Assembly: GCA_000182565.2 (NCBI GenBank)
Contig: KQ257450.1
Source of the DNA: Spizellomyces punctatus DAOM BR117
Taxonomy: Eukaryota
Length of the DNA: 64,000 nucleotides
Reading direction: 5' to 3' (one strand)
Both the position numbers and the translations under genes were made by a program. The notes beneath the pieces are model-generated. The model was not told the origin of the DNA and searched no databases. It saw only the letters and a list, made by a program, of their open reading frames with translations. Below are positions 2,907 to 33,379 of the stretch, piece by piece; within the stretch, counting starts at the first letter, position 1, and every line of letters begins with the position of its first letter.

Positions 2907-3488
2907 CTCCCTTCGCTCATCATCGCCATCTTTTTTCGCTAGCCTCACCATTGTCAACATGTTGACCCTTATGGGACTAGTTTTCTGTTTTGATAAACAG
3001 AAAGAATTGTAGAGCGCTTGCATTCTTGATAAGACGCAAAGTACAGGCAGGATTCAGCAAAAAGGGATCGATAGGCTGATGATCCCAGCCTTTATTGGCT
3101 TCACAGTGATGTGTTGTTTGCTTGTTTTCGATGGCTTCTGCGTATGGTCCAGCGTGGAATGTTTCGCATGAGAGACTCCCTGGTGTTGCAGGTCTATGTA
3201 TGCAAGTGTCAATCTTCGTCGAACAAGATGTACCTGCGTTTGGGAAATATAGATTATGAGATCTGAAATGGGATGTATGTACTAAGTGTAAAGGGAATGC
3301 TATGGAACTCTTTTTTCTTTGCCGTCCGTGTTTCGCATATGTTTAAAAAAAAAAGTAATATCATAGTTGGATTACAAAAGAAAATGGTGGGACTATGTTA
3401 GAAATGCCTATATGAAACTATTCTACATCCGAAATTTGCGCATTTTAACGATGGTAACCACACATGTGCATGTGGTCAATATGCATCA

Positions 3489-17690: not shown

Positions 17691-18049
17691 CCAGAATTCC
17701 TTAACATTAGCATTAACTTTGTACATAGTTTGCATGAGTGGATATCGTTAGCATAATGTGCATAATTGAAACTGAGGACCCATTATGAGTCTGCTGTGTT
17801 AGGTCTCGCATATATGACACTGTACACTAGAGAGGCAAAACTGAATCGTAAATTGAGGTTAGCAACAGGTCGCAGCACAATGGCCGGAACTCTGAATGTG
17901 GAATGTAATGCATTCTTCAGCTGTAAGCAATCCCCAGACATGCTTTGCGATGGCTGACACTCTTACAATGGTGAGCTACCGAGGCCATTCATAAATGTAA
18001 CATGTGATATCCTATTCACCACCAAGTCCGCCATCCCATCTCTAACTGT

Positions 18050-21000
18050 TCACATACTTCGTTGAACATACGTTTGGGGAAATACACCAGACTTGCTTCC
18101 ATCCACACTCTGCCCATACGCCCACCCATTTCCATAATCCCATTTGACCACTTTGAATGTCTCCCCAGCCGTCATACTTAACTGGCCTTCTCCACCGCTG
18201 GCATAATCCGAGAGAGCTGTTACGATTGTGCCGGGAGGGATACCAGGGGCTGGGGGGAGGATGGGCGCTGCGGGGATCGTTGAGGCTGTTGTTTTATGGT
18301 AGCTTAGATCATAGTAATATGTAACAAAAAAGTAGCAAACCCCAACTCACGAGTTGAGTCCGTGATCGGCTCTTCTTTAGTGGCAGCTTGTTCTTCCTTC
18401 TTGGCGGCAACAGCTGCGGAGACAACGTCGGCTACACGCACGCTCGTTTTGCGCTGAACGAGCGGTTGTGTGGTAGCTGTTTCCAAATCAGAGGCGAGGC
18501 TTTAACATTCAAAATCCTCAATTAACAGTCATTTCAACACTCACTTGCGGCCTTTTCAAGGTTCTTCCATCTATCTCGAACACTTGCTGCGGGTGCAGGG
18601 TTCGCATCTTTATCTGCCAAATCGGGACTCCACATCAACTCAGGTCTAACAGGCAAATTTCAATTGTGCTGTTCAAGTACCTTCTTCTGGTTTCTTTCCA
18701 AGGGCTCCAATTGATGAAGCATTTACGGTTGCTGAGAGCCAGGGGTTAGCCAAAGCCATTTGACAACATTGGAGACAGGAACTCACAGCGACTCTTCAAT
18801 GCTGAGCGAAGCTGTGACTGGAAATCCACTGCAGGTTCCGCTTTTGGGCGAACAGGTTCATTCTTCTGTTCTCCCTCCGTTGTGGCTGGAAAAGAAAGTG
18901 TGTTATTGAGTCAGCTTATTGCCGCCTGGTACCCACAACAAGAAAGCAGTGCATTACATTTATCCCCCCTTTTTTTCAGCGTCATCTTGAGCTGGTCCTG
19001 GAATGAAATTGGCCCCCCAGCAGGTGCAGCAGGGGCAGGTGCCGCTTCAGCTTGCGCGGCATCAACCGGCTTACGCAAGGTTCCCCGGTTTTTGACAGCA
19101 AGTGCTAATTGTTCTTGAAGGGACAGACCTTCTCCAGGTGTGGGAGTAAGCGGTGAGGATGGTTCTTGATTGATTGAAAATGAGCAACTGCGTAATCGAC
19201 CAATAGAGTGACATTAACAAGCACATACCTGACGGAGCTGTACTTCGTAAGGCTTTGTTTTTGAGCGCATTTGCAAGCTGCGATTGTAGATCATTGCCGC
19301 CACCTGAAAGAACAGACGCTGTAAGAAACCAACATACTTTTATGGAATGCTTGAACCCGACATTTACCTGAAGCTGGAGGTGGAGGAGCTGGCGGCCCTG
19401 GTGGAGGAGGGGGCGGTGGTCCTCCCGCTCCAGGTGGTGGCGGAGGAGGAGGTCCACCAAATGCCGCTGGCGGTGGTGGTGGAGGGGGCGGACCGCCTGC
19501 TGTCGGGGCAGAAGACACGGCAGGAAAACTTCCACCTGCAGGTGGAGGTGCAGGTGGAGGAGGTCCCCCTGTTGAAATCAGAGGAGGGGGAGGCGCTTGT
19601 GGACCTCCACTCGCCATGGGTGGGGGAGGAGGGGCTGGTGGGCCCCCACTTGTCATTGGCGGAGGAGGAGGAGGCGCTTGCGGACCTCCACTCACCATTG
19701 GAGGAGGAGGGGGGGCTGGTGGGCCTCCACTCGCCATTGGCGGAGGAGGAGGGGCTGGTGGGCCCCCACTAGTCACTGACGGCGGAGGTGGGGGTGCAGG
19801 AACTGATGCTGCTGTGGGTGATAGTACAGCGGGCGGACCAGGAGGAGGCGGCGGAATGTCAACGTAGAGCACTGTCGGCTCCGTGGTCACCTGAGGTGCC
19901 GGAGGAGGTGTAGGCACGATGACAGCCGCGGCAGGGACGGGCTGTATTGGAGCCGGGGGAGGACTTGCAGGACTCACAGTAGCAACATTTTGTTGAGGAG
20001 CCGTCGAGATGGGCTCTTTCGTCGGTGTTGGAGTCGCAGCTGGCGGCGGGGACGGTGTCGCGAGCGCTGCTGCAGGTGGTGCTGGTGCTTCCTTTGGCGC
20101 TACGGATGCCACTGCTGGTGTCACGGTAGGTCCTCTCACCGATACGGCAGGCGATGCAGTCGATGACGATCTCACATCTGCAAAAACACGCAAACGCAAT
20201 GCGTATTCAGCATTCATGTGGGAGATTCTGAGATTTGATCGAAATACTCACCTTGTCCAGCTGCAATATCCGATGAAGACCCTTTTTTATCTAGGCTACT
20301 AGCACTGGCCGTATTATTCAGTATGCCAAAGATTTCACCTCGCACCGACTTTTTCCCACTACCGTCATAGGCCACTCTTGTCAACGACGCCACGGAGCCT
20401 GCCTTGGATGTATTCTTCACTTCAGGCTCCTCTATAGCCTGTCTAAAAGCCCCAATAACTCCAGACCTCATGGCCACGGTCGTGTCGGCCCGCGAGAGCG
20501 AGGCAGCCGCGGCCGCCCCCAAACTCATTTTGGAGGGAGCGTAAACCATTGTAACAGAATACCGTGAAGCACGGCTAGACCCAGACTCAGGTATCACACC
20601 AACGTGGTCGTAAGCGTTAAGATCCAATTGGAGAGCTGGTTGGGCTGGAAGCTTGGGCAGGCCAGCTGAATTGCATTCAAAGTTAGTCCTTCAGAATGTG
20701 CTATTATCCACACACCAAGCAATTACCATCAATCTTTACAATCTTCTTGCTCTTCCTGTAAACTTTTTCCATGGGTTGTCCCAAGGATCGTCGTTCCAAA
20801 TCTTCAAAAGCGAATTTCAATCTCTGATCGATTGCCTCGGTCTCAAGCCCAACTTTATCCACCCTCCTGGCCTGCAATTCAAGGAATCCTTTCAGCTTTT
20901 CGGCTGCCGTATAGAGTTGATATGCCAGAGCTGAGACCCCTTGTACAGCGTATCCTTTAGTCTGTCCATACGTCTCAGCGAACCTCGCGCGATCGTGTGT

Positions 21001-29391: not shown

Positions 29392-30139
29392 ATGGCAAAG
29401 GGCGAGTCAACCCGCGAAAAGCCTTCTGTGCTGTTCGTCTGCCTAGGTAAGTCTGATACAAGTTGGAGGCGCTTGCCGTGGCAGAGTCTTTTAACGCCGC
29501 CAGTTAGGCAACATTTGCCGGAGTCCAATGGCGGAAGCCGTGTTCAAACATGTTGTAAAGGAAAAAGGTCTCGAAGAAAGGTTTGGTGCGATAAATAGTG
29601 CAGGCACAGCTGGATATCACGTACGCACAGTCTTGCGCTTTTCATGTCTGTTTATCTTTTCGTTCTCACTTTTGCTCTGTAGGTAGGGGAAAAGCCAGAC
29701 CCACGCTCGACTGCTACCTGCGTCAACCATGGTGTGCCAGTTCATCATTTTGCGCAGCAAGTGTCAAAGAACCATTTCAGAGACTTTGACTGGATCCTTT
29801 GCATGGATGAGGTGCGTGCGACGATTCGGCCGTTAAATCGTGGTCGTACCTAGACTCACAACTGGATCGTAGAGCAATCTGGCGGATTTGAAGAGGAAAC
29901 AACCTCCAGGGTCTACCTCGAAAGGTTCGTCTGTTTTCATATCCCCACATCTCTCCATTCCTACCGATCGACTAACGGATGACTCTCATTCTGCAGTCCA
30001 GTTGTTTGGCGATTTTGATCCTAAAGGCGACAAGATCATCAAAGACCCCTATTACGGTGGGATAGACGGCTTTGAATACAACTACAAGCAGGTCGTGAGA
30101 TGTTCCGAAGGATTTTTGAAGCATCTGGAAATGATCTAG
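29392..30139 (+). CDS. LTP1: Low-molecular-weight protein tyrosine phosphatase (multi-exon)
   Basis: SVLFVCLG/NICRSPMAEAVF (CLGNICRS P-loop split by an intron), FDWILCMDE, IIKDPYYGG. Confidence 0.93.
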
Positions 30140-30698
30140 AGGCCATGGCTATTATTTATTGCGGGTTGAAGAGCTGCTCGCTTGCCGTGGTGTAGAGAGG
30201 AGATGGAAGATTGTTGCGGACCTATTTGGAGTTTAGATGTGACATTCATTATTTATATGTCAAATATGGGGTTTGGTGAAGAAGAAAAAATGGAAATGTA
30301 TATAGAACTATTCCATCGTATCTAAAAATGACGAGCTTTAATGTCGCGATATGGCATGCTCATTGCTCCCAAGCGTCCTCTGGAAACAAACTCACCGGAC
30401 AAGCACCTCAACATCTCACGAACACTCTCCAATATTTGACTCCAATCGCCGATCCAAAATGCGGAAACCACATGTTCGTCATAAACAAGATTTACCAGGA
30501 TAGATCCCAACTCTGACCCCTCACATGCGTCACACCCTTAACTATCGAACAGTGGATGTCTAGACCCAAACAAAATAATGATATCAATTCCCCACATGAC
30601 GCAACATGCTTGTCGAAAGACATAAAAACAGGGCTTGTGCTCCACATCGACCAGCAGCCACAGCCAGATTCACATATCTTTTAATCTGTTAATTAACA

Positions 30699-32115
30699 AT
30701 GCCCATCTCAAGCCAAACTTCCCGCCCTGTCCCCTCCACAACGCTCTCCACAACGCCCCGGAGACGCTCGTTAACACCCTTCCCCGGCCTTCCACCTGTC
30801 AACGTCTTGGGGGCCGAAACGACGCGGAACGAGGTGGCACATCCAGACGTTGGGAATGTGACGGTGGTACTTGTCGGCAGTCGAGTTGGATCTTTGGTGA
30901 GTAATTACTTTCCTTGAATATTATTTATATTGGCGAACTGATATCGAAAATGCCGTTGTGGGTAGGAAAATATAACGTGGAAACCTCCAGGAGGTAAGAT
31001 ATCCAAATCAACCGAATTCCTGCATCTTTCCCGACCAAGATATTCAATGGGCAAACGGTAAAAATAACAGGAGACAAGAAAATCTTTCACCAACGACTGA
31101 ATTTCAAACAAAAGGCCAGCAGTCGGGTTGGGTCTTTGGAGGTGCGTACGAGTCTCCACAGTTTCAATACATCACTGGAGATCGGGCTGATGAAAGTTGG
31201 TGCTTGCTTTAGAATCTTTATTGGTCGGCACCAGGGTAAGGTTATGCATTGCGAATCCTTCTATCCCCAACTCAATGAATCCTCACCGTCCAAATCTTGC
31301 AAAGACATAAACAAAAAATCCCAACAAACGATCTAAGCTTCATCCAAAACGCTCGATCCAAAGTCGGCTCGCTGGATAATATTCATTATACCCCACGAGC
31401 CAGTCAAACTCTCAAGGGACGACAGAGATCTGCGAGTTTAGAATCAAAGAGTCGGGAAAAAGTTTTGTTTTATAGTCCATCTTTTGAGGTATCTCTACCA
31501 TGTTATCATGTTCGGGTAGATGAACATACTCATCATCCGCTTCCGCAACAGAGCCTTCCCCGCACACACACGCCGACTAAACCGATCAATAAAAACGTCC
31601 ACTCAAAGATTGGTAGCTTGGATAACATTCATCACAAGCCGGGCGGCGGGAAGGTCAAGATCATAAATGAAAAAATTCCGGTGGGAAAGTTCAAAAAGGT
31701 GGACTCCAGGGTTGGAAGTTTGGAGGTTAGGCCCCCTTTGACACCATTTTTTTTTACTTGCTTTATTGGCTTGAACGCTCACTGAGTCGTAGAATATTCG
31801 GCATGTGCCTGGTGGTGGAGATGTTCAGGTACGGCTGTGTTCCTGCTCTTCTGCATGCCACTCCTAACACTCTGTCCTGGGCACAAAACCTTTGAAATAT
31901 GACAGATCATCAACTTGCCTCTACATCTTCACCCTCAATCCAAAGTGGGGAGTCTCGATAACATCCACCACGAGCCTTTAGGTGGTCATGTAGTCATTGG
32001 TACGTGCAAAGCCAGCATATGAGTCGCGCAAAGCCGCAGTCTAATGCTGTCACCAGTGAACGAGCCCATCGTGTACAAGACAAAGGGGGAACTTGCTAGG
32101 GCTGCGCGCGGTTGA
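30699..32115 (+). CDS. Tau/MAP2/MAP4-like microtubule-binding repeat protein (8 exons, 6 repeats)
   Basis: Exons 30699-30896, 30966-30993, 31071-31141, 31213-31235, 31305-~31725 (probably containing one more in-frame intron ~31489-31551), 31793-31828, 31906-~31999 and 32057-32115 splice in frame through GT-AG introns. Repeats include [22 protein letters not shown] and [22 protein letters not shown]. Confidence 0.85.
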
Positions 32116-32234
32116 CGCTTGTGGCGAGCAAAGATATCGCTGTTTTCATGTCTGTCCATGCACGGCTACATTTCAAAACGTACTAAAGAACGAATCTGTT
32201 GTCTATGTGTAATTTACATAAATATGTGTAGAAA

Positions 32235-33302
32235 CTACAAATCTACACTCTCCCAAGATGCTCCGTCTTTCAATACATCCAATATGAGAACCTCGCTCTC
32301 AATAGGTTTCCCATCCGCACCCACGCTCGACGTCCATATTCCCTGCACCTTTGCTCCAATCTCTTCAAAGTTGCCTGTTGCTAGTGCCAATACTGTCGGT
32401 CCCGCACCAGATACACATATGCCCAACAATCCGGGTAGATCCTGAGGTGTCAATGCAAGGATTTGGGGGAGACCGGGAACGAGGTGCTGACGATAGTGTT
32501 GGTGGATCTTGTCTTGCATGGCGGTGTAGACAATGTCCGGGGAGGGTACTTCGGCACACAGAGCTGACGTCAAAACAGCGAGACGTTGCAGATTGAAGAC
32601 AACGTCTGCTCGGGGGTATACATCCGGTAAGACACTTCGCGCCAACTTTGTTGACAATTCAAACTTTGGAATGATCACAACAGCCCGAATGGCTTTCGAA
32701 AGCGGTAACCGGACGTATCGCCCAATGTTTTCAATCGGAGGTACGGGCAACCCAACACTCCCATTCGCCACGCCGTTCAATTTAGGAATCAACTTTCCGC
32801 TCTTCTCCAATTCATGTAACTCTCTATGCTCCTGCTCTACACTGGCTGCCAGATAGCTCGCACAAAAGCCCCCAATCAAACTCGCCGTAATGTTATCAGG
32901 GTGGCCCTCAATAACCAGACAAAAGTCCAGCATTCTGTCTTTACTCAAACCCAACTGACATGCTTGGTTGGCCAAGATCACGCCAGCAACCACAGCTGCG
33001 CCTGATGAACCTAAACCTCTGCCAAGTGGAATAGGGTTATCAATGTGAAGGTCCATAGGCGGAAGCGAGACATTGTGCACAGCAGCAATGTACGAGGCTG
33101 TTCGTGTGATGAGATTGTCAAGGACTGTCAATGGCACCGTGTGAGGGTTGTTCCCAGTGTATGTGATGCTGACGGACTGTAAGGTGGGCGACAAGGTGGC
33201 TGTCAGCGTGAGATGGAGGGAGAGTGTTGCTCCCAACACATCGAATCCCGGCCCAATGTTTGAAGTCGATGCGGGAACGCGGATAGTGATTTTTCGTGAC
33301 AT
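32235..33302 (-). CDS. THR1: Homoserine kinase (GHMP family)
   Basis: IRVPASTSNIGPGFDVLG, IPLGRGLGSSGAA, IEGHPDN, MQDKIHQHYR, SGAGPT. Confidence 0.95.
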   Translation of the reverse strand: MSRKITIRVPASTSNIGPGFDVLGATLSLHLTLTATLSPTLQSVSITYTGNNPHTVPLTVLDNLITRTASYIAAVHNVSLPPMDLHIDNPIPLGRGLGSSGAAVVAGVILANQACQLGLSKDRMLDFCLVIEGHPDNITASLIGGFCASYLAASVEQEHRELHELEKSGKLIPKLNGVANGSVGLPVPPIENIGRYVRLPLSKAIRAVVIIPKFELSTKLARSVLPDVYPRADVVFNLQRLAVLTSALCAEVPSPDIVYTAMQDKIHQHYRQHLVPGLPQILALTPQDLPGLLGICVSGAGPTVLALATGNFEEIGAKVQGIWTSSVGADGKPIESEVLILDVLKDGASWESVDL

Positions 33303-33379
33303 GATGTCTGTGGTGAACAAACAAACCAGGAAGGGCAAGATCCAAGTCGGGGCGGTACTTCATCGCCTAACCATCAGAT

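Follow-up and report, generated by a model that had tools for sequence, protein, structure and literature searches.

A tau-type repeat protein encoded in the genome of the chytrid Spizellomyces punctatus

A stretch of 64,000 nucleotides of Spizellomyces punctatus DAOM BR117 DNA, here called the window, contains the annotated gene SPPG_00495, which we consider to encode, with a high degree of confidence, a basic, disordered protein of 288 aa carrying six tubulin-binding-type repeats (three repeats, a 47-aa spacer and three repeats), a protein that would act as a tau-like microtubule binder and whose family would be older than the split between animals and fungi. Judged by its sequence, SPPG_00495 belongs to the Tau/MAP2/MAP4 repeat family and represents it in a chytrid. 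Both the gene and its family label are already public, as are other fungal members.

Gene model and expression

The gene occupies positions 30699–32115 on the plus strand. In a canonical splice-site model it consists of nine exons, with the ATG at 30699 and the stop codon TGA at 32113–32115, and all eight introns run from GT to AG and are 57–77 nt long. Comparison by script revealed that the product of this nine-exon model is identical at every letter to the public 288-aa protein SPPG_00495. The protein is named 'uncharacterized protein SPPG_00495 [Spizellomyces punctatus DAOM BR117]' at NCBI and 'Microtubule-associated protein' in UniRef, and a precomputed PF00418 annotation is also present.

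The repeats are distributed over small exons, all on the plus strand, and the introns interrupt them behind GSL/GSLE (in phase 0) and in the vicinity of PGG. Exon 1 (30699–30896) encodes Met1 to Leu66, comprising the basic S/T/P-rich N-terminus (residues 1–58) and the start of repeat 1, whose core RVGS lies at residue 62. The middle of repeat 1, with PPGG at its end, is encoded by exon 2 (30966–30993; 28 nt). Exon 3 (31071–31141) contributes the end of repeat 1 and the core of repeat 2, and matches PF00418 with 26 bits from this exon alone; exon 4 (31213–31235; 23 nt) encodes the middle of repeat 2. The end of repeat 2, the whole of repeat 3 and the opening part of the 47-aa basic spacer come from exon 5 (31305–31488). 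The spacer ends in exon 6 (31552–31725), which also encodes repeat 4 (KIGS...PGGG) and the core of repeat 5 and aligns with R1–R2 of tau. Exon 7 (31793–31828; 36 nt) encodes the middle of repeat 5 (PGGGDVQ), and exon 8 (31906–31999) encodes the end of repeat 5 together with repeat 6, matching PF00418 with 39.8 bits by itself. Exon 9 (32057–32115) encodes the C-terminal tail, which is conserved in chytrid orthologs, and ends with the TGA at 32113–32115.

These limits, 30699–32115, are exactly those of the original prediction, and all six repeat strings that it quoted are present in the spliced product as well as in the stop-to-stop frames of 30000–33000. Its GT–AG splicing also held, but it had taken 31305–31725 as one exon, which the public model splits by intron 5 (31489–31551, plus strand; 63 nt, GTATCT..CAACAG). 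Read-through of this in-frame, stop-free intron is the sole difference between the two models: keeping it yields a product of 309 aa, and removing it yields the public protein of 288 aa. A 31-nt GT..AG intron candidate inside exon 5 was dropped, and the 63-nt intron reproduces the public protein instead.

SPPG_00495 is a real, expressed gene. From one RNA data set bearing the same species label, of which about 6 in 100 raw reads of the run were sampled, 583 reads were placed. The depth of sense-strand RNA was strand-specific and rose toward the 3' end, with values of 70.5, 65.8 and 31.1 in the bins spanning 32075–32275 and of less than 6 across the bulk of the coding sequence. The junction of the last intron, 31999>32057, was crossed by 10 reads with 8 distinct starts, and loose read ends also matched the start of the last exon. 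The join across intron 31829–31905 was indicated by 8 reads whose loose ends before 31903 match the end of exon 7. In an unrelated root metatranscriptome, the joint 31235>31305 (intron 31236–31304) lies inside a 190-nt RNA contig with 0 other letters, and a loose end of the same contig matches the end of exon 3; coverage in that run extended only over 31211–31456. A further RNA run that we searched yielded no reads matching the locus. The junctions had been proposed for confirmation by RNA, and four of the eight are supported in this way; the other four (exon 1 to exon 2, exon 2 to exon 3, intron 5, which no RNA reads cross, and intron 31726–31792) fall outside the coverage.

The 3' untranslated region extends over 32116–32275 on the plus strand, with an approximate end point, and holds the peak of sense-strand RNA depth. 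It overlaps the 3' end of a convergent gene for a GHMP kinase on the minus strand, the overlap lying within 32075–32275. Positions 32142–32275 are covered by sense reads of both strands, and a loose end with a run of T at 32181 marks a poly(A) site for the gene on the minus strand.

Locus context

The gene had been placed between LTP1 and THR1, and Pfam matches recovered a phosphatase and a GHMP kinase on its two flanks. Upstream lies a gene of several exons for an LTP1-like low-molecular-weight phosphotyrosine phosphatase (LMWPc; 29495–30139, plus strand), two exon pieces of which match PF01451 with 47.8 and 33.1 bits. Downstream and convergent is the gene for the homoserine-kinase-like, THR1-like GHMP kinase (32235–33359, minus strand), which matches PF00288 with 64.9 bits and is covered by antisense-strand reads.

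Nothing was found in favour of animal contamination or of chimeric assembly at this locus, and either is vanishingly improbable. The public protein sits on a 2.24-Mb contig, its neighbours are ordinary housekeeping genes of fungal type, contigs from a DNA run with the same species label span the stretch with 0 other letters, and six other chytrid species, each assembled independently, have orthologs. The introns are short in the manner of the host, as had been pointed out, all eight being uniformly 57–77 nt. Because the neighbours are fungal, the introns short, the same-label DNA contigs in agreement and the orthologs in the six other chytrid assemblies collinear, contamination is excluded.

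Elsewhere in the window, the only tRNA gene found was one for tRNA-Ala (AGC) at 2834–2907 on the plus strand. The bin with the highest G+C content of the window is 18001–20000 (0.544, compared with 0.42–0.52 in the other bins), and it overlaps an ORF of 308 aa at 19291–20217 on the minus strand.

Repeat architecture of the protein

With a pI of 10.44 and a net charge of +22, SPPG_00495 is very basic, and S, P, G, V and K are abundant in its sequence. It is built from a 58-aa N-terminus, repeats 1–3, the 47-aa basic spacer, repeats 4–6 and an 18-aa tail. The N-terminal 58 residues are 41% S+T+P, with a pI of 11.4 and a net charge of +2. As the core of the family we took a (K/R)xGS motif with (D/E)N after it, expected once per repeat at a spacing of about 31–32 residues, and six such (K/R)xGS...(D/E)N cores are present. 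Their (K/R)(V/I)GS motifs are at residues 62, 94, 126, 187, 221 and 251, in steps of 32, 32, 61, 34 and 30. Only repeats 4 and 5 retain the full PGGG; its counterpart is PPGG in repeat 1, APG in repeat 2 and PLGG in repeat 6, and it is missing from repeat 3.

The Atlas model of the exact SPPG_00495 sequence has a pLDDT of 0.39, a value that fits intrinsic disorder. The protein thus combines a basic, proline/serine-rich flank with overall disorder, and a long acidic N-terminal projection domain is absent from it, the N-terminus being 58 aa long with a net charge of +2.

Two smaller features of the repeats were observed. Repeat 5 contains VQIINL at residues 236–241 (31823–31828 and 31906–31917), of which VQIIN is common to the aligned stretch of tau R2; the corresponding stretches are VKIIN in repeat 4 and VVIVN in repeat 6. 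The VQIIN-bearing stretch of tau R2 is one of the aggregation-prone hexapeptides of tau. We also observed a weak match to PF12488 (DUF3704) at residues 57–69 (about 30867–30896 and 30966–30974), with 22.7 bits against a cut-off of 21.9. No single stretch passes, the match overlaps the first repeat core, and PF12488 is also precomputed on a Racocetra homolog; the match probably reflects overlap of the DUF3704 model with tau-type repeats.

Membership of the Tau/MAP2/MAP4 family

A search with the PF00418 profile, which the original prediction had put forward as a check of its family assignment, was highly significant: with the cut-off at 27, SPPG_00495 as a whole gave six matching stretches and 187.1 bits (E 3.8e-56), and the largest exon piece by itself gave 83.2 bits (E 1.2e-23). 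Of the solved-structure sequences, 51 matched at E ≤ 0.001, and every one of them was tau or a microtubule-associated protein. Among these solved structures, residues 169–277 of SPPG_00495 (repeats 4–6) aligned collinearly to tau 241–347 (R1–R3) over about 107 residues, and the human Tau repeat strings that had been quoted in the original prediction agreed with the tau chains. BLASTP returned E values of 1e-34 against a lizard tau and 3e-36 against a starfish microtubule-associated protein, with the similarity confined to the repeats. The profile, the alignment to structure sequences and BLASTP concur with the identity first proposed for this protein, that of a fungal member of the Tau/MAP2 family.

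When 1.84 billion representatives were scanned exhaustively with HMMER, 804 clusters passed E ≤ 0.001, 461 passed E ≤ 1e-10 and 50 passed E ≤ 1e-30. The Atlas sequence search returned animal PF00418 clusters only. Atlas structure matches (TM 0.16–0.23) were discarded, such matches being meaningless for a disordered model.

Fungal relatives and chytrid orthologs

Named relatives with PF00418 were found in at least 18 fungal species belonging to two phyla: 7 chytrids, 6 Mucoromycotina (5 Mucorales and Bifiguratus, of the Endogonales) and 5 Glomeromycotina. They were drawn from the best 120 of about 3300–3400 matches per search, 13 of 120 and 15 of 120 being named fungal, together with 20 representatives that were looked up. 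Eight of these 20 were named, comprising two further fungal records (Thoreauomyces and Bifiguratus), a second Powellomyces protein and five animals, and the other 12 were environmental or assembly records. NCBI files Spizellomyces and Thoreauomyces under Spizellomycetales, Rhizophlyctis under Rhizophlyctidales and Phlyctochytrium arcticum under Chytridiales. One of the Glomeromycotina proteins, from Gigaspora margarita, has the NCBI name 'microtubule-associated protein tau-like'. The matches listed, which are the best 120 of about 3300–3400, included no named Dikarya, Blastocladiomycota, Zoopagomycota or unicellular holozoans, and this lack, among the best 120 of more than 3300, carries no weight on presence or absence.

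Six chytrid orthologs, including those of Phlyctochytrium arcticum, Powellomyces hirtus, two Geranomyces species and Rhizophlyctis rosea, are collinear with SPPG_00495 and related to it one-to-one, with 48–58% identity. All keep the layout of three plus three repeats, and in all six orthologs every core has an unchanged G, S and N. Wherever the ends are present, the 'PGLPPVN' stretch of the N-terminus and the tail at the C-terminus are conserved as well.

Across the fungal PF00418 proteins (Powellomyces hirtus, Geranomyces, Phlyctochytrium arcticum, Thoreauomyces, Rhizophlyctis, Mucorales, Glomeromycotina and Bifiguratus), several share the UniRef name 'Microtubule-associated protein'. The chytrid orthologs resemble SPPG_00495 in layout and in both terminal motifs, whereas the proteins of Mucorales and Glomeromycotina have 6–9 near-identical contiguous repeats and long unrelated flanks and do not have the chytrid end motifs.

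Several observations concern individual relatives. Chytrids have a second, shorter PF00418 paralog (198 aa in Powellomyces hirtus, 239 aa in Rhizophlyctis rosea and 197 aa in a further record), and these short paralogs do not group with the six-repeat orthologs. Among the matches listed, the closest relative of SPPG_00495 is the Phlyctochytrium arcticum protein (58% identity), which falls within the Spizellomycetales/Rhizophlyctis clade despite being filed under Chytridiales; its taxonomic label may be out of date. The models from Rhizopus arrhizus (1136 aa) and R. delemar (1123 aa) join PF02652 (lactate permease), PF00293 (NUDIX) and PF00418. These fusions are probably merged models of neighbouring genes, and they may be the 'distinct' Rhizopus architecture of Sundermann et al. 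2016 (PMC4815063).

Origin of the fungal repeats

We built a tree from a block of about 94 columns covering three repeats, with 39 rows (19 fungal and 20 animal) chosen by name from about 340 proteins. Repeat arrays make the orthology of this block uncertain, and the tree was used only on nesting inside animals. Eight of the nine chytrid rows formed a clade (support 100/99), as did the Glomeromycotina (100/98) and the vertebrates (99/93). The backbone was weak (66/74), the Mucorales rows were scattered, and one Rhizophlyctis paralog paired with a starfish row (88/94, unstarred). No fungal group in this 39-row tree was nested in an animal clade with starred support. When the fungi were constrained to a single clade, the cost was 12.9 log-likelihood units, and the AU test did not reject the constraint (p 0.123).

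The tree and the AU results fit an ancient origin with many losses, and we infer that the family is older than the animal–fungal split and was then lost in most fungi. The weak backbone, the scattered Mucorales rows and the pairing of a Rhizophlyctis paralog with starfish limit the case for vertical descent. We nevertheless lean, at somewhat better than even odds, toward a repeat module that predates the split and survives in zoosporic fungi and Mucoromycota, with the 288-aa chytrid protein standing near the minimal ancestral form, which would consist of the repeats and a basic flank without a projection domain.

Part of the same evidence could instead indicate that the fungal repeats arrived by at least one old horizontal transfer from an animal, perhaps with transfer between fungal lineages as well. 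The named fungal matches listed are patchily distributed, coming only from Mucoromycota, Spizellomycetales, Rhizophlyctidales and a single species that NCBI places in Chytridiales; the free tree does not unite the fungi in one clade and has 6 label changes compared with a minimum of 3; and the chytrid block reaches much the same scores with Mucoromycota (54–89 bits) as with animals (50–85 bits). Set against these points, a single fungal clade is not rejected by the AU test, no starred branch puts a fungal group inside an animal lineage, and the gene has short introns of host type and fungal neighbours. The chytrid orthologs, moreover, share one collinear architecture, which argues for long residence. 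On balance we regard such a transfer as unlikely, and the presence of the module before the animal–fungal split as the preferred reading.

Proposed function

If SPPG_00495 behaves like its homologs tau, MAP2 and MAP4, its disordered chain would be stretched along a microtubule protofilament and anchored at a tubulin interface by each (K/R)(V/I)GS(L)(D/E)N core. Entries 6cvn and 6cvj among the matched solved structures are, we believe, cryo-EM structures of microtubule-bound tau. A protein bound in this manner might stabilise microtubules or bundle them, the cytoskeleton of the zoospore or the rhizoid being one possible site. Phosphorylation of tau-type KxGS motifs by MARK-type kinases releases microtubule binding. 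In the chytrid protein, a kinase of the MARK/Par-1/Kin1 type may likewise phosphorylate the Ser that is invariant in all six (K/R)xGS motifs and so detach the protein from the microtubule.

Microtubule binding by SPPG_00495 is thus predicted from the behaviour of its animal counterparts. One could also suppose that the tau-type repeats were kept while microtubule binding was lost, in which case the protein might be a disordered scaffold for another partner. The PGGG is not intact in four of the six repeats, and expression in the sampled RNA run was low (depth below 6 over most of the coding sequence), both of which would suit such a scaffold. However, the G, S and N of the six cores are invariant in six chytrid species, as expected of a maintained tubulin-contact motif, and repeats 4–6 match R1–R3 of tau across about 107 residues. 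We therefore judge a scaffold without microtubule binding to be quite improbable and retain the tau-like binder as our working interpretation.

Prior record and significance

Reviews usually treat tau-family MAPs as animal proteins, and fungal members are present in databases largely without comment. A premise that the gene was unreported does not hold: SPPG_00495 is annotated and has a UniRef name, and relatives are recorded in at least 18 fungal species. Sundermann et al. 2016 (PMC4815063) set a homolog from the 'fungus Rhizopus delemar', with a distinct domain architecture, beside the animal proteins, and rooted the family in 'ancestral metazoan homologs'. Passages from PMC6759874 and PMC13406575 contain nothing about fungal members. 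Among the titles and abstract openings covered by our literature search, we found no paper on chytrid tau-family members, and none that states or tests, for chytrids, an origin before the split or a minimal ancestral form.

If the fungal members bind microtubules, the repeat module would be at least as old as the opisthokonts. A chytrid would then offer a simple, non-neuronal system for the original role of tau-type repeats, and would open the questions of KxGS-based regulation and of the behaviour of the VQIIN-type stretch. Spizellomyces punctatus can be transformed. The value of SPPG_00495 is that of a pointer for researchers on the cytoskeleton and on tau; it is neither a new gene nor a new kind of system.

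Comparison with animal tau-family proteins

Vertebrate tau (MAPT), MAP2 and MAP4 share with SPPG_00495 the tandem PF00418 repeats of 30–34 aa with a (K/R)xGS...(D/E)N...PGG(G) core, and also the basic, disordered, proline-rich flank. In tau, R1–R3 are collinear with repeats 4–6, and R2 shares VQIIN with repeat 5 at the aligned position. By contrast, the chytrid protein is only 288 aa long and does not have the acidic N-terminal projection domain, and its six repeats are split three and three by the 47-aa spacer, whereas vertebrate members have 3–5 contiguous repeats. It also differs from them in that four of its six repeats do not have a full PGGG, and similarity beyond the repeats is not significant. 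The long acidic projection domain is a trait of the vertebrate members; Pfam does not define the family by it, and it is variable in invertebrates.

Tau/MAP2-like proteins of invertebrates (sea urchin, starfish, brachiopod, mollusc and tunicate) carry multi-repeat arrays near the C-terminus. Among the matches listed, they rank with the best-scoring relatives after the chytrid orthologs (Lytechinus, E 7.4e-84; Lingula, E 3.3e-72). At 524–1847 aa, these animal proteins far exceed SPPG_00495 in length, and they have large N-terminal regions.
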